This document shows positions 2,732 to 33,755 of a stretch of DNA of 64,000 nucleotides, piece after piece. The stretch is from positions 3,090 through 67,089 of the forward strand of contig CAXMOC010000255.1 of assembly GCA_964194865.1 (NCBI GenBank). The letters run 5' to 3'. The number at the start of each line of letters is the position of its first letter. The stretch's first letter is position 1. The notes under the pieces were generated by a model. It had not been told where the DNA came from. It ran no database searches and was given only the letters and a program-made list of their open reading frames with translations. Origin of the DNA: an uncultured Opitutales bacterium (lineage in GTDB: Bacteria; Myxococcota_A; UBA9160; SMWR01). Made by a program: the position numbers and the translations under genes.

Positions 2732-3541
2732 TCAGGAAGGTCGATCAGGCGTCTTGCCGTCGGCCAAATCGTGGATTCGCTCGTCGAGAGCCACGAGCAG
2801 GGCGGCGAATCCCTCACGCTTGATCAACGATGAATATTCGGAGCGCCGAAGGGCGAGCTCGCTGACGGTCCCGTTCAGATAGACGTCGATGATGCGCCAG
2901 CCACCCTCGGCCGGTCGCAGGCGGTAATTCAGCTGTACGGCGTCGCCGTTCGGCTCCACCAGACGGCTGTGGACCAGGATGGTGCCGTGCGCCGAAACCT
3001 CTTCCTTGACGGTTTCGAAGATCTGGTCCGAGTAGCCGTCGAAACGCCCAGCGTAGTTGGCGACGGTGAAACGACCAAAGGTCGTGAGGAGTCTGGCACG
3101 ATCCTCGTCGCCAGCCTTTCTCCAGTGCCGTCCCACCGATTTCTCGGCCATGAACGGGATGTCGAAGAGCTGATTGAGCACGGGCTCCAGCTGCCGAAAG
3201 CGACCCTCGTAACCGAGTTCGTCGGCAGCCTTCATCACGCCGATCAACTGTTCGTGAAGCGTGTCGACCACGGCCGTTGGCTCGCCGCCCACGCTGGCTT
3301 CATCAGTCACTGCCGCGGCATCCGCCGCCGGCTGGGATTCCGCGACCGCATCCGATTCGGCTGCCGCTACCGGAACCGCGACCGCATCCGCTTCGGCTGC
3401 TGCCACAGGATCCACAACCGCCTCCGTGTCCGCGACAGCGTCGCTGGCAGGCGAGGGCCCAACCCACAGGGCGGCCATCAGGCTGAACCCAACTTGAAGC
3501 GGTGTTGTCCGAACCTTCACCGGGGTCCCCCCCTCTGACAA
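2732..3541 (-). CDS. MlaC/Ttg2D-family periplasmic lipid-binding protein (HpnM-like)
   Basis: Signal-like N-terminus (GFSLMAALWVGPSPA), then an Ala/Asp/Val-rich linker. The Ttg2D-type core follows: FDIPFMAEKSVGRHWRKA, FGRFTVANYAGRFDGY, LNYRLR...GGWRIIDVYLNGTVSELALRRSEY. It is convergent with the RND gene. Confidence 0.7.
   Translation of the reverse strand: MSEGGTPVKVRTTPLQVGFSLMAALWVGPSPASDAVADTEAVVDPVAAAEADAVAVPVAAAESDAVAESQPAADAAAVTDEASVGGEPTAVVDTLHEQLIGVMKAADELGYEGRFRQLEPVLNQLFDIPFMAEKSVGRHWRKAGDEDRARLLTTFGRFTVANYAGRFDGYSDQIFETVKEEVSAHGTILVHSRLVEPNGDAVQLNYRLRPAEGGWRIIDVYLNGTVSELALRRSEYSSLIKREGFAALLVALDERIHDLADGKTPDRPS
3341..3412. repeat. 36-bp tandem duplication (2 copies, about 31/36 identical) inside the HpnM-like coding region
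   Basis: cgcgaccgcatccgattcggctgccgctaccggaac (3341-3376) is followed by cgcgaccgcatccgcttcggctgctgccacaggatc (3377-3412). The duplication is in frame (12 codons each) and encodes the Ala/Asp/Val-rich linker after the signal peptide. Confidence 0.7.
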
Positions 3542-25858: not shown

Positions 25859-27103
25859 ATGGGTATGCGTGACGTTCGCATGAAGGGTTTCGCCCAGCGG
25901 GCGGACGTAGAGGAAGTGGACGCCTTCCTGGGCGAGCACGCCCACGCGCTCGACGCCGAGCCGGTCGAGCTGCTGAAGTGTGCGGGACGCGTGCTCGCCG
26001 AAGATCTGTGCTCCGAAGTCGACGTTCCCGGCTTCGCACGCTCCGCCATGGACGGCTACGCGGTGAGGGGCGAGGACACTTTTGGCGCCGGTACCTACGA
26101 GCCCATCACATTGACACTCGAGGGAGAGGCGCTGCCCGGCCGGTCTTTCCCAGGGCGGGTCGAGTGCGGCACGGCCGTGCGGGTGATGACGGGCGCACCG
26201 CTTCCCGCTGGAGCCGACGCCGTCGTGATGGCCGAGGTCTGCGAAGAGCGCGACGGCAAGGTCGAGATCAGTGAAGCGGTCGCCCCGCAAAAGCACGTCG
26301 GAGCGGTCGGCGAGGACATTCGCTCTGGGGATCTGGTGCTTCGCGCCGGCCGGCGTCTGCGTGCTCAGGATGCGGGACTGCTCGCGTCGATCGGCGTCGC
26401 CAGCGTCCGTTGCATAAGACGCCCACGGGTCCAGCTGGTGATCACGGGAGACGAGCTTCTGCCTGCGGGGAGCCGACCCGAGGGCCCGAGCATCGTCGAC
26501 AGCAACTCGGTGGTGCTGCGCTCGCTGATCGCGCGCGACGGAGGCGAGGTGTTGCCCTTCGAGATCCTACAGGATCGTCCGGAGGTCATCCGGGACGCAC
26601 TGATCCGGCCAGGGGCCGATGTGGTTGTGGTATCGGGTGGTAGCTCAGTGGGCACCGAGGACCATGCGCCCCGGCTGGTCGCCGAGCTCGGCCAGCTCCA
26701 CTTCCACGGCATCTCCATGCGTCCCTCGAGCCCCACCGGTATCGGCCGGGTCGAAGGTCGACTGGTGTTCCTGTTGCCGGGCAATCCGGTCAGCTGCCTA
26801 TGCGCCTACGAGTTCTTCGCGGGGCCTCACCTGCGTGCACTCGGCGGGCGATTCCGGGGGTGGCCCCACCGCCGAGTCCGGCTGCCGCTGGCACGCAAGA
26901 TCAGCTCGGCGGTGGGTCGTACGGATTACGTGAGGGTTGCGATCGAAAACGAGCGGGTCGTGCCGATCGCGACCTCCGGGGCATCGATCCTGTCGTCGAC
27001 CGTGCGCGCTGCAGGCTGTGTGGTGGTGCCGCGGGAGCTTGAAGGAATGCCGGACGGCGCCGAGGTAGAGGTCCTGCTCTACGATGACGAGGGTGCTATT
27101 TGA
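25859..27103 (+). CDS. moeA: molybdopterin molybdo/tungstotransferase MoeA
   Basis: PGFARSAMDGYAVR, VRVMTGAPLP, VITGDEL, VVVSGGSSVGTEDH, LLPGNPVS. The stop overlaps the next start (TTGA at 27100-27103). Confidence 0.85.
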   Translation: MGMRDVRMKGFAQRADVEEVDAFLGEHAHALDAEPVELLKCAGRVLAEDLCSEVDVPGFARSAMDGYAVRGEDTFGAGTYEPITLTLEGEALPGRSFPGRVECGTAVRVMTGAPLPAGADAVVMAEVCEERDGKVEISEAVAPQKHVGAVGEDIRSGDLVLRAGRRLRAQDAGLLASIGVASVRCIRRPRVQLVITGDELLPAGSRPEGPSIVDSNSVVLRSLIARDGGEVLPFEILQDRPEVIRDALIRPGADVVVVSGGSSVGTEDHAPRLVAELGQLHFHGISMRPSSPTGIGRVEGRLVFLLPGNPVSCLCAYEFFAGPHLRALGGRFRGWPHRRVRLPLARKISSAVGRTDYVRVAIENERVVPIATSGASILSSTVRAAGCVVVPRELEGMPDGAEVEVLLYDDEGAI

Positions 27104-28998
27104 GACAGCAGCAATTCCTCGAAATTCTGGAGCGCGATGAGGCGGAGCGTCGCTGGCGCTCGGTGCTCGAGCTGACCTCGCTGCCGGCTGAGACCGTGGC
27201 GCTCGAGGACGCGTTGGGTCGGGTGCTGGCCGAAGACGTCCGGGCCGACGTGGACGTTCCCGGCTTCGATCGATCCAACATGGACGGCTTTGCGGTGCGT
27301 GCCGAGGACTGCTTCGGCGCCACCGAGGCGGAGCCCGTGATGCTGGACGCCAACTCGGAAACGATCCCAACGGGTATTGCTCCCACCGAGGAGGTGAAGT
27401 CCGGAACCGCGACGTCGATTGCCACGGGCGGCATGCTGCCGCGGGGCGCCGATGCGGTGCTGCCGGTGGAATTCACCGACATGGAGGGGGATCGGATCGA
27501 GGCTCGGCGCGAACGCGTACCCGGTGCTGCGGTCTCTTTTGCGGGCACCGACATCGGTCGGGGTGAGACTGTGCTCTTCCGTGGTGCCCTGCTGACTTCC
27601 CGGGAGACCGGGGTGCTTGCGGCGATCGGACATTCTGAAGTGTCGGTGGTTCGCCGTCCTCGCGTCGCAATCCTCTCCACGGGCGACGAGATCGTGCAGC
27701 CCGGAGAGCCGATGCGCCCCGGTCTCGTCTACGACAGCAACGGCCGGATTCTGGCCGACGCCGTGCGCGAGCTGGGCGGGGAGCCGAACTTCCTCGGCGC
27801 CTTTCGCGACGAAGAGACGCGGCTGCGCGAAGCTCTAGGCCGGGCTCTTCGGACTGCGGATCTGGTGCTGCTGTCCGGAGGCACCTCGAAAGGGGAAGGT
27901 GACCTCAACGCGAGGGTCGTCGCGGATCTGGATCCCGGGATCGTCGTACACGGAGTTGCGCTCAAGCCGGGCAAGCCGATCTGCCTGGCCGCCTCCGGGA
28001 GGCTTCCGGTGGTGGTCCTGCCCGGCTTTCCGACTTCCGCGGTTTTCACCTTCCACGAGTTTGTCGCTCCCGTGATTCGCGAGCTTGCCGGGAGGGCCCC
28101 CGGCCGACGGGAGCAAAGTCAAGCGCGCCTGGCGACCAAGACGACTTCCGAGCGCGGCCGCCTCGAATACCTGTTGGTCGGTCTGGTACGGCGCCCCGAT
28201 GGGCAGTTGGCCGCCTATCCGATGGGCAAGGGCAGCGGCAGCGTTACTGCCTTCAGCAGGGCGGACGGGTTCGTACGCATTCCGCGCAATACCGAAATCG
28301 TCGACGCCGACACCGAGGTCGAGGTCACCCTGTTGTCTCGAGAGCTTCCGCTCGCCGACTTCGTGGCCATCGGGAGCCACTGCATCGGCCTCGACTGCCT
28401 GGCGGGAGCGCTCGCCCGCAGGGGTTTCACGGTGAAACTGATGGCAGTCGGGAGCCAAGGCGGGCTTGCGGCAGCGCGGCGGGGCGAGTGTGACGTCGCT
28501 CCGATCCACTTGCTCGACCCCGTGAGTGGCGAGTACAACCGCCCGTTCCTCGATTCCTCATTGAAGCTGCTGCCGGGCTACGCCCGCCAGCAGGGTGTCG
28601 TGACCCGCGCCGATGACGACCGCGATACCGACGCGCTGCTCGCGGACCCGATGCTGCGAATGGTCAACCGCAATCGGGGCAGCGGCACACGAATCCTGAT
28701 CGACCAACTTCTGGGGAAGCGCCGTCCAGCAGGCTATCCCTACGAACCGCGTTCACACTACGCTGTAGCGGCTGCGGTCGCCCAGGGACGCGCCGATTGG
28801 GGTGTTACGATCGAGACCATCGCTCGCCAGGCTGGGCTTCGCTTCCGGCCACTCCAGGCGGAACACTATGACTTTGCCATCCCCGTCAATCGCTGGGACC
28901 GCCCCGCCGTGGTGGCGCTGCGCGAGCTGTTGGCGTCGGGCGGAGAGTTGCGCGAGCAGCTCGAAACCCTAGGGTTCGGGCCGACGGAGTCGACCTGA
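27100..28998 (+). CDS. moeA: MoeA fused to a C-terminal periplasmic-binding-protein-like (type-2 PBP) domain
   Basis: N-terminal ~400 aa repeat the MoeA motifs: PGFDRSNMDGFAVR, SIATGGMLP, STGDEIV, LLSGGTSKGEGD, VLPGFPTS. The C-terminal ~220 aa (FVAIGSHCIGLD...NRNRGSGTRILID...ADWGVTIE) look like a PBP2 substrate-binding fold. TTG start. Confidence 0.8.
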   Translation: MRQQQFLEILERDEAERRWRSVLELTSLPAETVALEDALGRVLAEDVRADVDVPGFDRSNMDGFAVRAEDCFGATEAEPVMLDANSETIPTGIAPTEEVKSGTATSIATGGMLPRGADAVLPVEFTDMEGDRIEARRERVPGAAVSFAGTDIGRGETVLFRGALLTSRETGVLAAIGHSEVSVVRRPRVAILSTGDEIVQPGEPMRPGLVYDSNGRILADAVRELGGEPNFLGAFRDEETRLREALGRALRTADLVLLSGGTSKGEGDLNARVVADLDPGIVVHGVALKPGKPICLAASGRLPVVVLPGFPTSAVFTFHEFVAPVIRELAGRAPGRREQSQARLATKTTSERGRLEYLLVGLVRRPDGQLAAYPMGKGSGSVTAFSRADGFVRIPRNTEIVDADTEVEVTLLSRELPLADFVAIGSHCIGLDCLAGALARRGFTVKLMAVGSQGGLAAARRGECDVAPIHLLDPVSGEYNRPFLDSSLKLLPGYARQQGVVTRADDDRDTDALLADPMLRMVNRNRGSGTRILIDQLLGKRRPAGYPYEPRSHYAVAAAVAQGRADWGVTIETIARQAGLRFRPLQAEHYDFAIPVNRWDRPAVVALRELLASGGELREQLETLGFGPTEST

Positions 28999-30327
28999 GT
29001 GGCCACCCAGCTGCGCCGGGGCTCCCGCGTCGGAAAGTATCGGATCGATCGCAGGATCGGGCGAGGCGCCTTCGCCGAAGTCTGGAAGGCGCGCGACACG
29101 GTCGAGAACCGCCCGATCGCACTCAAGCTGACCCGGCCCGATGCGGTGGCAGAGTGGGGCCGCCATGCGATCGAACACGAGGCGCGCATCGCGAGCCGGC
29201 TCGATCACCCGGGTTTGGTTGCCATTCGCAATGCTGACTGGATCGACGGCTGCTTCGCCATCGTGACAGACCTCGCGCTCTGCAATCTCGCCAACTACAC
29301 AAGAGCGCGCCGCTCTGCGGCTACCGCCCTCGAGGTCATTCGCGAGGTGGCGTCCGGGCTGGCCTACGCCCACGAGAGGCGCATCTTTCATCGAGACGTC
29401 AAGCCCGAGAACATCCTGATCTTCGAAGATGGCCGCGCCGCGCTCGCTGACTTCGGCGCGTCGCGCTTTGCCAAGGGTGCGGAGCGCACCGTAACGGACG
29501 CGGGTACGCTCGGTTACATGGCGCCGGAGCAAGCCTACGGGCGCGGGCGCTTTACCTCGGACGTCTTCTCGCTCGGACTGATCGGTTACGAGCTGCTCAC
29601 CGGAGTGCTGCCGTCTTGGCCCTTCGAGTGGCCGCCGCCCGGCCACGATCGCTTTGCTGCCAAGGTGCCCGAATCTCTGCGTCCGGTGCTGCGCAAGGCC
29701 GCCCAGTTCGATCCGCGTCGGCGCTATGTCGATGGCGGCGAGTTCTATCACGCGCTGGAGCGCGCGTTCACCCAGGCCGAGCGCCCGAAGGCGAGCCCTC
29801 CGATTCGCCGCAAGCGACGAGCACCGCCTTCGCCGCTCGCCGTCCAGGCCAACGCCTTTCGCCGCGCCCACGGCAAGGGTCTCGGCATGCGCTTCTCTTG
29901 CCGCCGCTGCGAGAGCCCAATTGCCGAGGCGATGCAGTTCTGCCCCTGGTGCGGAGCATCCGACAACTCCTATCGCGACCTGACGAGCTTTCCGCTGGTG
30001 TGCCCGGACTGCGAGAAGGGGGTGCGCGCCGAGTGGAACGCCTGTCCGTGGTGTTACCCAGGCCGCTTCGTCGGAAACGGCCGCAAGCCGCTGCGCGATG
30101 CCAAGGCGGTGCGCCGTTGTGCGGGCCGGAGCTGTGAGGGACAGCTCCGCCCCTTCATGCGTTACTGTCCGCTCTGCAAGCGCAAGACCAAGCGCGTGTG
30201 GTCGCATCGCAATCTGCCCGATCGCTGTCCGCGCTGCCGCTGGCCGACTTCCCACGCCTTCATGCGCTTCTGCCCCTGGTGCGGTCGCCGCGAATCCCGC
30301 GCGGGCTCGTTTTTATCGGCGCGCTGA
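28999..30327 (+). CDS. Hanks-type Ser/Thr protein kinase with four C-terminal zinc-ribbon repeats
   Basis: IGRGAFAEVWKA, IALK, HRDVKPENIL, LADFGAS, GYMAPE. Then four C-x2-C...C-x2-C units: CRRCES..FCPWCG, CPDCEK..ACPWCY, CAGRSCEG..YCPLCK, CPRCRW..FCPWCG. The GTG at 28999 directly abuts the moeA stop (TGAGTG). Confidence 0.85.
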   Translation: MATQLRRGSRVGKYRIDRRIGRGAFAEVWKARDTVENRPIALKLTRPDAVAEWGRHAIEHEARIASRLDHPGLVAIRNADWIDGCFAIVTDLALCNLANYTRARRSAATALEVIREVASGLAYAHERRIFHRDVKPENILIFEDGRAALADFGASRFAKGAERTVTDAGTLGYMAPEQAYGRGRFTSDVFSLGLIGYELLTGVLPSWPFEWPPPGHDRFAAKVPESLRPVLRKAAQFDPRRRYVDGGEFYHALERAFTQAERPKASPPIRRKRRAPPSPLAVQANAFRRAHGKGLGMRFSCRRCESPIAEAMQFCPWCGASDNSYRDLTSFPLVCPDCEKGVRAEWNACPWCYPGRFVGNGRKPLRDAKAVRRCAGRSCEGQLRPFMRYCPLCKRKTKRVWSHRNLPDRCPRCRWPTSHAFMRFCPWCGRRESRAGSFLSAR

Positions 30328-30643
30328 ACCACCTCACCGATCGAACGAGCGGGCCGCCTGGGCCCAGCCAGCTCGGCGCTCGCTCGCCCCGAGTGGTCTG
30401 CCCAGGCGTTTCGCGAACCCCGTGCGGGCTCGTTTTTGTCGGCCCGCTGAACCACCTCGTCGGTGCCCCTGGGCCCCGGCCAGCTCGATGCTCGATTAAC
30501 CCGAGTGGTCTGCCCAGGCGTTTCGCGAACCCCGCGCGGGCTCGTTTTTGTCGGCCCGCTGAACCACCTCGTCGGTGAAACGAGCGGGGCCCCTGGGCCC
30601 CGGCCAGCTCGATGCTCGATTAACCCGAGTGGTCTGCCCGGGC
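30289..30643. repeat. tandem array of three ~112-123 bp structured repeat units (30289-30411, 30412-30523, 30524-30643)
   Basis: Each unit reads cgcgaa(t/c)cccg.gcgggctcgttttt(a/g)tcgg.ccgctgaaccacctc...cctgggccc.gccagctcg...ccgagtggtctgccc. Units 2 and 3 are near-identical apart from a 12-nt indel (aaacgagcgggg), and unit 1 is more diverged. Internal inverted repeats are GCGGGC...GCCCGC and GGGGCCC-CT-GGGCCCC. The array overlaps the stop codons of both flanking convergent genes. Confidence 0.85.
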
Positions 30644-31711
30644 TAGTAGCCGGAGTGCCTGCGCCTTGATGATCGCGTAGACCTCGACTCCGGGCCGCAG
30701 CTCTAGGGCGTCGACGGCTGCTGGAGTGACCTTGGCCACGAGGGGTTCGCCGGCGTCCAGGTGGATGCGCGCGTTGTCACCGCTGACTTCGCAGGTCGAC
30801 ACGGTCGCACGGATTGCATTGCGGGCGGAGATACGGCCGGGAGGATCACGGCTGAGCAGCACATCTTCGGCGCGCAATCCCAGCCGAACCGATTCGCCGG
30901 CCGGCAGTGTCACAGGGATGACCAGGCGCAAGCCGGCTCGAGTTTCGACGGTGGAGCCCGCGCCGCTGTTCTCCACCACCCGGCCGTCGATCGCATTCTC
31001 CAGGCCCAGTGCTTCCGACACCGGCAGCACCGCCCGGCTCCACAAGACCTCGCGCGGAGGGCCGCACGCGACGACGCGGCCGCGGTCGAGCACTGCGACG
31101 ATGTCACCAACCAGCATCGCTTCGTCGGGGTCGTGGGTGATGTAGACGATGGGGATGTCGAGCTCGTCGCGCACGCGGAGCAGATAGGGCAGGACCCGGG
31201 CGCGCAGCGGCCAATCCAGGGCTGCCAGCGGCTCGTCCAGCAGGAGGGTGCGGGGGCCGGCGGCGAGTGCGCGGGCGATCGCCACGCGCTGGCGCTCGCC
31301 CCCGGAAAGCTCGCCCACTCCGCGCCCGAGCAGGTCGCCGATTTCCAGCGCTTCGATCGCTCGCTCGACGGAGGGCGCCGTGCGGCCGTGGGCGCGTCGC
31401 CGCCCGAAGCGGAGATTGCCCGCTACGGACAGGTGAGGGAATAGCGTCGGGTCCTGGGGAACCCAGCCGAGCGCGCGATCCTCGACGGCGAGACGCAGGC
31501 CCCGCTCGGCATCGTCGAGCCAGACGCCGCCCAGCTGGATTCTCCCGCGCGCCTCGGGGATCAATCCCAGGGCGGCGTGGAAGAGGGTCGATTTGCCCGA
31601 GCCGCTGGGGCCGAAGATCACCGCAACTCGCTCGTGCCAGCCGAAATCGACGTCGAGCCGGAAGCCCGCTCGCTCGAGCTTGAGCTGGATTCGTGACTCG
31701 GTGCCGCTCAC
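30620..31711 (-). CDS. modC: molybdate ABC transporter ATP-binding protein with C-terminal TOBE/Mop domain
   Basis: The GTG at 31711 overlaps the modB stop (GTGA). Walker A GPSGSGKST, signature LSGGERQRVAIARAL, Walker B LLLDEPLAALD. The TOBE-like tail is ISARNAIRATVSTCEVSGDNARIHLDAG. The rest of the 635-aa track ORF is an out-of-frame shadow over modB. Confidence 0.85.
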   Translation of the reverse strand: MSGTESRIQLKLERAGFRLDVDFGWHERVAVIFGPSGSGKSTLFHAALGLIPEARGRIQLGGVWLDDAERGLRLAVEDRALGWVPQDPTLFPHLSVAGNLRFGRRRAHGRTAPSVERAIEALEIGDLLGRGVGELSGGERQRVAIARALAAGPRTLLLDEPLAALDWPLRARVLPYLLRVRDELDIPIVYITHDPDEAMLVGDIVAVLDRGRVVACGPPREVLWSRAVLPVSEALGLENAIDGRVVENSGAGSTVETRAGLRLVIPVTLPAGESVRLGLRAEDVLLSRDPPGRISARNAIRATVSTCEVSGDNARIHLDAGEPLVAKVTPAAVDALELRPGVEVYAIIKAQALRLLARADHSG

Positions 31712-32376
31712 CGGTGACCCCGTCGCAACCAGCCTTCGCCAATCAGCATTGCCGCGAGCGCGATCGTGAAGGAAGCGGTGCACAGCGCGAGGGCTCCGGC
31801 GTCGTCTCCGAGCAGGACGCGCGAGTAGATTCCCAGCGCCAGGGTCTCGGTCCGGCCTGGAATGATCCCCGCCACCAGGGTGGTGGCGCCGAACTCGCCG
31901 AGGGCGCGCGTGAAGCTCAGCAGAGCACCGTAGAGCACCCCACGCCGGGCCAATGGCAACGTGACACGAAAAAATGTTGACAAAGGACTCAGCCCAAGAG
32001 AGCGGGCTACTTGCTCGAAGCGGGGGTCGACTTCCGCGAACGATTGCTCGCACGCCCGTACCAGCAGCGGGAAGCCCACTGTGCCCGCTGCGAGCACCGC
32101 CGCCCACCAGCTGAAGACGATCTCGACCTCGAGCGCGGACCACAGCGCGCCGAGCGGCCCGCGGGGCCCCAGCAACAGCAACAGGAACAGGCCAACGGCG
32201 ACGGGCGGCAGCACCATGGGTAGCGCGATCAGCGCCTGAAGCAGTGATTTTCCGGCGAACTCTCGTCGGGCGAGGGTGTGTCCGAGGAAAACGGCAGGTG
32301 GCAGAATTGTAAGCGTCGCCACCACCCCCACGCGCAAGGTGAGCGCGGTGATCGAGAGCAGCTCCTCGGCGCTCAT
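31708..32376 (-). CDS. modB: molybdate ABC transporter permease
   Basis: 222 aa, five to six hydrophobic helices, EAA-loop region FEQVARSLGLSPLSTFFRVTLPLARRG. ATGA overlap with the modA stop. Confidence 0.85.
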   Translation of the reverse strand: MSAEELLSITALTLRVGVVATLTILPPAVFLGHTLARREFAGKSLLQALIALPMVLPPVAVGLFLLLLLGPRGPLGALWSALEVEIVFSWWAAVLAAGTVGFPLLVRACEQSFAEVDPRFEQVARSLGLSPLSTFFRVTLPLARRGVLYGALLSFTRALGEFGATTLVAGIIPGRTETLALGIYSRVLLGDDAGALALCTASFTIALAAMLIGEGWLRRGHR

Positions 32377-33194
32377 TCGACTTTTCCTCTGTCGCGGGCG
32401 TTAGAATTGGGAGCGCTAGCGAAGCCCGCCGCACCCAGAACCCGCTGGGCGGAGTCGCCCGCCAGAAACTGCACGAAGCGCCGAGCGAGCGGCAGGCTTC
32501 GCGACTCAGCGAGTGGCGCCGCGACATAGAAGATGTGCGGTTGCTCGCCCAACGGCACTTCGAACGCCACCCGCGCCGAGCGCGCGAGCGCGGCGTCGGT
32601 CGCGTAGACGATCGCGACGTCCGCGTGGCCGAGATCGACGGCGCTCAGCGTGGCACGGGCGTGCTCGGTCTGGAGCATCCGGGGGGCGAGGCGCTCGAGC
32701 AGCTGGTGGGTGCCCAGCCATTCCCGGGCATAGCGGCCCACTGGAACCGCGTGCTCGGGGATCGCGATTCTGCGCACGGCGGGGCCGGCGAGATCTGCGG
32801 CATTTGCAATTGCGTGCCCTGTCTGCGCTGAAGCGATCACCACGAGCCGGTTGCGAGCGATGGGCCGTGGGTCTCCAGGCGCAACCAGCCCCGCGGTGAC
32901 CAGCGGCGCGACGAGGCGAGCATCGGCCGAGACGAAGACGTCGATGGGCGCACCAGCGCGTATCTGATGGGCCAGCACGCTGCTCGCGCCGAAGCTCAGC
33001 GTGATTACCGCGTCTGGATGCGCCGCCTCGAAGTGCTCAGCGATGGACAGCAGGGGCTCGCGAAGGCTCACCGCGGCCCCCACCAGTAGCTCCGCTTCCA
33101 ACCCACCCGCGACCAGCAGAAGCAGCGCTGCGGCCAGCCAGGCCCCAAGGGAACGGGCCCTGGAGGTGCCACTCGAATCGCGCTGGCTCGCCAT
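32373..33194 (-). CDS. modA: molybdate(/tungstate)-binding periplasmic protein
   Basis: ATG at 33194 with SD GGGAGGA. Signal LGAWLAAALLLLVAGG. ModA-type motifs LSFGASSVLAHQI, DVFVSAD, DVAIVYATDA. The upstream part of the 431-aa track ORF is discounted. Confidence 0.8.
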   Translation of the reverse strand: MASQRDSSGTSRARSLGAWLAAALLLLVAGGLEAELLVGAAVSLREPLLSIAEHFEAAHPDAVITLSFGASSVLAHQIRAGAPIDVFVSADARLVAPLVTAGLVAPGDPRPIARNRLVVIASAQTGHAIANAADLAGPAVRRIAIPEHAVPVGRYAREWLGTHQLLERLAPRMLQTEHARATLSAVDLGHADVAIVYATDAALARSARVAFEVPLGEQPHIFYVAAPLAESRSLPLARRFVQFLAGDSAQRVLGAAGFASAPNSNARDRGKVE

Positions 33195-33308
33195 CGGATC
33201 CTCCCAGCGTCGCGATGAATACCGAACTTCAGCTCGTTTTCCCTTCGAGGGGTTGTCGGCCGACGGTGGCGTGGCAGGATAGGGGGCTGCCAATCCGGGG
33301 GGCAGGGC

Positions 33309-33755
33309 GTGCGGAAACCCATCATCCTCACTGCACTCGCGGTGATGCTTCTCGTCGCCGCCTCGCTCTGGCTCGAGGAAGGCGAGGTCGTCACCCTCGT
33401 TACCACCGACGACCAGGGCCAGGAATTCGAGACCGGGCTTTGGATCGTCGACCTCGACGGCGTGCCCTATCTGCGGGCGGAGTCCGCTGACGCCAGCTGG
33501 CTCGATCGGATCCGCGCTCGGTCCGACGTTCAGCTCGATCGCGCGGGCCGACGCTTTGCCTATCGCGCGATCCCCCTCGACGATGCGAAGATTCGCGAAG
33601 CCGTGAATCAAGCGATGGACGAGAAGTACGGCGGCCTGGATCGCGTGTTGGTCTGGCTCTGGGATCACTCGGGCGCGGTGCCGATCCGTCTCGACCGACT
33701 ACCCACAGCGAATTCGATGCCGCACAGTGACCTCAGGGTCGGAGCGGTTCGATAG
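33309..33755 (+). CDS. hypothetical membrane-anchored protein (possibly split-barrel/DUF385-like)
   Basis: N-terminal TM/signal MRKPIILTALAVMLLVAASLW. The remainder has coding-like composition (VVTLVTTDDQGQEFETGLWIVDLDGVPYLRAE...). The family assignment is only a loose resemblance. Confidence 0.45.
   Translation: MRKPIILTALAVMLLVAASLWLEEGEVVTLVTTDDQGQEFETGLWIVDLDGVPYLRAESADASWLDRIRARSDVQLDRAGRRFAYRAIPLDDAKIREAVNQAMDEKYGGLDRVLVWLWDHSGAVPIRLDRLPTANSMPHSDLRVGAVR

Follow-up and report, generated by a model that had tools for sequence, protein, structure and literature searches.

The window, by which we mean the whole 64-kb stretch of DNA that was analysed, has a GC content of 65%, and no tRNA or tmRNA genes were found in it. 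A Ser/Thr protein kinase gene on the plus strand and modC, which encodes the ATPase of a molybdate ABC transporter, on the minus strand converge on a gap occupied by three head-to-tail repeat units (Table 1); modB and modA lie upstream of modC on the same strand. The kinase matches the Pfam families Pkinase (E = 4.9e-36) and DZR (E = 4.8e-12), with the double zinc ribbons at the C-terminus. A protein search with it returned 3444 homologues, the best 120 of which matched at E <= 2e-203, and those among the 120 with a source name came from Myxococcota or Myxococcales. Elsewhere in the window, a tandem repeat with a 36-nt period at 3336-3426 (2.4 copies, 84% matches) lies in a minus-strand ORF of 269 aa (2732-3541), within an N-terminal region rich in Ala, Asp and Val (…AVADTEAVVDPVAAAEADAVAVPVAAAESDAVAE…), where it is probably a low-complexity linker following a signal peptide.

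Table 1. Coordinates of the genes, repeat units and related features; positions are those of the window unless a related contig is named.
Feature	Position	Strand	Description
Ser/Thr protein kinase with C-terminal zinc ribbons	28999..30327	+	442 aa; last 13 codons and stop in unit 1
Unit 1	30289..30411	+	123 nt; native kinase tail 30289-30327 (RESRAGSFLSAR, stop) and spacer copy 1
Unit 2	30412..30523	+	112 nt; pseudo kinase tail 30412-30450 (still REPRAGSFLSAR, stop) and spacer copy 2
Unit 3	30524..30643	+	120 nt; pseudo kinase tail 30524-30562 and spacer copy 3
Palindrome CGGGGCCC-CT-GGGCCCCG	30585..30602	none	GC-rich, in spacer; hairpin possible; without adjacent U-tract
modC, molybdate ABC transporter ATPase	30620..31711	-	363 aa; convergent with kinase; Pfam ABC_tran, TOBE
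ModC extension RADHSG and TAA	30620..30640	-	six codons, read from spacer
ModC extensions	window 30620-30643; L005 5342-5416; L012 2190-2225		
modCBA region	L003 4281-5618, compared with window 30620-33668		modCBA absent in L003, present in window

The GTG start of the kinase directly follows the stop of a gene encoding a MoeA-PBP_like fusion (632 aa), at 28998/28999, with a further moeA gene upstream. This order of moeA, moeA/PBP and kinase (27100-30327 in the window) is also found in the related contigs L002, L003, L004, L006, L011, and L013, and it is kept among Myxococcota contigs with a kinase identity of only 79-85% at the protein level. The conserved moeA neighbourhood hints that the kinase is tied to molybdenum-cofactor or molybdate metabolism.

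An earlier sequence-only reading of this DNA had divided the convergent gap into three units, and TRF, MAFFT, blastn, and a motif search all bear this division out. TRF reports an array at 30352-30643 with a period of 112 and a score of 399. The three units align in MAFFT with a mean column identity of 90% and match one another by blastn at E = 1e-24 to 1e-42, and a unit motif with 24 specified bases has exactly 3 matches in the window against 0 expected from 100 shuffles. Units 2 and 3 had been described as nearly identical and unit 1 as diverged; we likewise find 97-99% identity between units 2 and 3, which differ by 2 substitutions, a 12-nt indel, and their last 4 nt, and 81-92% identity between unit 1 and the other two. 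That reading had also spoken of units that have the insert. The indel itself is real, but it represents 12 nt lost from unit 2, between 30464 and 30465, and not an insert in unit 3, because the related contig L014 has two unit-3-type copies and both keep the 12 nt. The small inverted repeats that had been pointed out are likewise present as GCTCGTTT/AAACGAGC (arm pair I10) and CGGGGCCC-2nt-GGGCCCCG (I14), the latter being a central palindrome with weaker versions in units 1 and 2. The units meet at junctions of 4-10 nt, which read GTTT in the window and AGAT or CTCCC in relatives, and for which no source was found in either flank.

Each unit opens with 39 nt from the 3' end of the kinase gene, which encode RE(S/P)RAGSFLSAR followed by a stop. 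When 60 C-termini from the 120 listed kinase matches were compared, a tail of the form RREPRAGSF..R and stop, or ...CPWCGRREPRAGSF(M/L)..R, was found to recur in these orthologues. Because the tail is common to the orthologue C-termini examined, the left third of the unit is conserved coding sequence native to the kinase. In units 2 and 3 this stretch reads REPRAGSFLSAR and a stop, and both units therefore carry an untranslated copy of the gene end together with about 80 nt of spacer; in blastn their pseudo-tails align with the 3' ends of the kinase genes in L002, L003, and L004, with 79-88% identity over 39-41 nt. Such duplicates of a gene end are not expected in a mobile element or an RNA gene. 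Since the length of unit 1 (123 nt) is a multiple of 3, a ribosome reading through the kinase TGA would stay in frame and add 41 residues, ending in REPRAGSFLSAR at the pseudo-stop of unit 2 (30448-30450), which is probably a coincidence of unit length.

At the other end of the array, the last 24 nt of unit 3 form the end of modC on the minus strand, and the last bases of the unit coincide with the last ancestral modC codon. Both flanking stops accordingly fall inside the repeat, as had been reported, with the kinase TGA (30325-30327) in unit 1 and the modC TAA (30620-30622) in unit 3. Most of the ModC orthologue C-termini examined end in ...KAQALRRLA and a stop (...ALRRLA or ...RRLA). In the window, ModC reads ...KAQALRLLA and continues with RADHSG, to end in ...ALRLLARADHSG. 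With no stop left at the ancestral position after ...LLA, the reading frame runs on into spacer sequence, which supplies this extension, and the gene ends at the first in-frame stop within the spacer. The ancestral stop position reads CGG in the window, CGA in L005, and TGA in L006, codons that are 1 or 2 substitutions apart, and modC appears to have lost its stop by substitution from TGA. The tail is RADHSG in the window, L011, and L014, TARADHSDGSSV in L012, and TARADQPDHSSIELAGAQRPRSFHR in L005, each followed by a stop, so that 6, 10 or 23 strain-specific residues, antisense to the repeat spacer, follow the ancestral Ala. ModC is 363, 368 or 381 aa long, where most of the listed orthologues have 356-360 aa. 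We argue from this strain-to-strain variation that the ModC extension is unconstrained.

Five close-relative contigs from other metagenomes (L005, L011, L012, L013, and L014) were picked via 90%-identity clusters of the window kinase and ModC. For the three whose flanks were compared, L005, L011, and L012, nucleotide identity in the flanking genes is 94-98%. In L011, where the gap is complete, there are two units, the second of which equals window unit 3 at 120/120 positions, and there is no unit 2. Two units are present in L012, and two were seen in L005, whose contig begins 3 nt upstream of the first unit, at the kinase tail, so that further upstream units are possible. L013 holds at least 3 units and ends within the third. 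Copy number is polymorphic, from 2 to at least 3, because the unit counts differ between the window and these relatives. The suggestion of a recent amplification is upheld by the near-identity of units 2 and 3 and by the presence in L011 of an equivalent of unit 3 without unit 2; judged from these alignments, unit 2 of the window is a recent extra copy. No single-unit strain was found among the close relatives in which the gap or part of it was recovered, all of them holding at least two units, a pattern that fits drift and is also compatible with some benefit of the array.

The outgroups L004 and L006 have the same gene order (moeA, moeA-PBP, kinase, convergent modCBA) and no repeat. In L004, whose kinase is 79% identical at the protein level, 25 nt separate the two stops, and in L006, whose ModC is 87% identical at the protein level, the gap is 60 nt. 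By blastn the spacer showed no homology to these single-copy gaps beyond a doubtful 8/11 match beside the modC stop. In L003 (kinase 83% identical), where modCBA is absent, the kinase overlaps a following TRAM/tRNA-U5-methyltransferase gene, and such a gene lies beyond modA in L005, L006, and L011; these arrangements make the 3' end of the kinase a recurrent boundary of rearrangement. Three independent metagenome contigs also end inside the array or at its edge (L005 at 5581, L013 at 4511, and L014 at 1475). The array may account for these ends, as short-read assemblers may break at a tandem repeat, and copy numbers taken from MAGs, including the window's three, therefore need read support.

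Comparison of the units among strains indicates how the array changes. The pseudo-tails have decayed, with indels or frame loss in L005_2, L012_2, and L013_2. Over the first 47 nt, unit 1 of the window and unit 1 of L011 show 6 differences, 4 of which match window units 2 and 3; all four are silent, three lying in the coding tail and one past the stop, a pattern suggestive of gene conversion with a tract that extends into the real 3' end of the kinase. In L005, the spacers match at 78 of 81 aligned bases and the identity between pseudo-tail and real tail is only 71%, a likeness of spacers that fits conversion or recent re-duplication. Between the window and L005, spacer divergence amounts to 16-24% of positions versus 5.5% at modC four-fold sites, a comparison that gives no sign of purifying selection on the spacer. 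We infer that the array is without function.

Taken together, these data make it very probable that the array is a strain-variable local tandem segmental duplication (a minisatellite or VNTR) of an ordinary kind, the simple local duplication that the sequence-only reading had held as its fallback. The copies stand head to tail at one locus, the unit is built from local sequence of the flanking gene and spacer, as seen from the kinase tail and the last modC codon, and copy number varies among close relatives with none of the repeat in L004 and L006. As to the order of events, we infer that a segment of about 120 bp, with kinase codon 430 at one end, the last modC codon at the other, and the kinase stop and ~80-nt convergent spacer between them, would have been duplicated head to tail in the ancestor of one species-level Myxococcota lineage. 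As the duplicated segment took in the ends of both genes, both stops would lie within units. Translation would cover the first copy of the kinase tail alone, the downstream copies being pseudo-3'-ends, and the last copy would abut modC, which, lacking its ancestral stop, would terminate where the spacer offers its first in-frame stop. Copy number may then have shifted, by unequal crossing-over or replication slippage, within a range of 2 to at least 3. Unit 2 would have been gained in the window and would later have lost 12 nt, and gene conversion may have left the units mosaic and, in some genomes, homogenised.

Comparable arrays are known from other bacteria. In Yersinia pestis, 10 of 88 VNTRs overlap a stop codon (PMC3689786). 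As in those VNTRs, the units described here are head to tail at one locus, close strains differ in copy number, the stop of a flanking ORF falls inside the repeat, and the upstream protein is little affected by changes in copy number. The unit here is 112-124 bp long and takes in the whole convergent gap, touching the ends of two genes, whereas the units in the Y. pestis survey are at most 60 bp (PMC3689786). The copies here are, moreover, diverged and mosaic, unlike the near-perfect copies in Y. pestis.

MIRUs offer a second parallel, being tandem intergenic units of 40-100 bp that overlap the stops or starts of their neighbours and are polymorphic in copy number. Their family is spread over dozens of loci and mostly occupies gaps between co-directional genes of an operon. 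The present array resembles them in its tandem intergenic units over neighbouring gene ends and in its variable copy number, and differs in being known at one locus and in drawing a third of its unit from the adjacent gene.

The most plausible functional alternative is a terminator or insulator role of the spacer hairpins. The sequence-only reading had raised the possibility of a stacked bidirectional terminator, in which the GC-rich hairpins would stop both convergent transcripts and the duplication would be kept for insulation between the kinase and modCBA. A gap between convergent genes is the expected place for such an element, each spacer holds a form of the I14 palindrome, the predicted folds reach -45 to -67 kcal/mol, a scan flagged 3 terminator-like sites against 0.9 expected, and all close relatives examined retain at least 2 units. 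The three scan matches are, however, one sequence counted three times, kinase-tail sequence CGCGAACCCCGCGCGGG followed by CTCGTTTTT, and the unit 1 copy lies in the coding tail of the kinase, upstream of its stop. In its GC-rich hairpin and its position between convergent genes the spacer is like a Rho-independent bidirectional terminator, but neither strand has a U-run at the central palindrome, and the flanking U/A tract, outgroup conservation and covariation of such terminators are missing. Fold z-scores are modest (-1.2 to -3.1). RNAalifold, applied to 9 related units from 4 genomes, a set of low power, gave a positive covariation term on both strands (+1.79 plus, +0.84 minus) and a single compensatory pair per strand (1/34 and 1/31), short of the compensatory changes that keep pairs in a structured RNA. 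The spacer also diverges faster than four-fold sites, and the 25- or 60-nt gaps of the outgroups have no hairpin array. The proposal of a stacked terminator is thus not supported, and we consider it unlikely.

A broader version, which we rate as quite improbable, would make the ~80-nt spacer module itself functional, as a terminator or insulator without a U-tract or as a 3'-UTR RNA kept in at least 2 copies, with the pseudo-tails acting as conversion donors. If this were true, the copies would be homogenised by gene conversion, and the donors would reshuffle the synonymous sites of the real kinase 3' end.

Membership of a REP/MITE-like mobile family had also been proposed, the spacer module or the whole unit being then a dispersed element that inserted here repeatedly. 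Its size, GC-rich palindromes and intergenic position do resemble REP/BIME or MITE sequences, which are sometimes clustered, and the window search spans 64 kb of one ~80-kb contig of the source genome. The left third of the unit, however, belongs to the coding sequence of the kinase and is conserved in orthologues that lack the repeat, and neither REP/BIME nor MITE elements are expected to contain such flanking-gene sequence. No further copies were found in the window by blastn (word size 7, E <= 10), by an nhmmer profile of five units at E <= 10, or with the degenerate 24-base motif allowing 3 mismatches. Nor did three collections yield a locus in another context. In GTDB species genomes the invariant block GCTCGTTTTTNTCGGCNCGCTGAA gave one chance match, in the signal peptide of an Acidobacteria amidohydrolase with dissimilar flanks; in JGI metagenomes the core of the spacer palindrome gave four matches by pattern alone; and in IMG/VR viral contigs there were 0 matches to a 24-base spacer motif that fits every unit examined in L005, L011, and L012 as well as the three window units. 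These scans have limited power because the collections hold neither the window nor its close relatives. Terminal inverted repeats and a target-site duplication were not found at the array; the arm pair I3 is a palindrome, TTCGCGAA, that arises at the unit junction from the head-to-tail join and is not a pair of terminal inverted repeats. For the whole unit this reading is largely refuted, and overall we hold a dispersed element to be very unlikely.

A tandem small-RNA locus, or a 3'-UTR-derived one, with a structured RNA made from each unit, had been the third proposal. The predicted folds are stable, with z = -3.1 for the minus strand of unit 1, and the z-scores and covariation terms given above tell against a conserved structure. 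No Rfam family was found at the gathering threshold in the whole 64-kb window, and nothing credible appeared at E <= 10 in 30150-30800, where the best match scored 21.2 bits (E = 0.92) against a gathering score of 70 and the remainder was noise at E >= 0.9. No promoter-like site was found, near-identical strains differ freely in both copy number and sequence, and the 12-nt deletion costs unit 2 one arm of its long-range pairing. An RNA locus is on these grounds extremely doubtful.

The array is not a CRISPR, as had already been recognised, for its units abut and the whole period is repeated, with no short repeats separated by unique spacers. Two further candidates were rejected: a diversity-generating TR/VR arrangement (DGR), because the three sites at which the tails of units 1 and 3 differ are C, G, and C in unit 3, with no A, so that the substitutions are not at adenines; and an integration site (attL/attR), because nothing lies between the repeats.

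For the local tandem duplication that we favour, the consequences are modest, and the array itself matters little for biology. It is a clean example of how a duplication over two convergent gene ends gives rise to pseudo-3'-ends and, after loss of a stop, to strain-variable extensions of ModC, and of evolution by copy-number change and gene conversion. It also carries a warning for annotation, in that a repeat unit holding sequence of a flanking gene should not be called a MITE or an sRNA. The array could also be of use as a marker for telling apart strains in this uncultured Myxococcota population.
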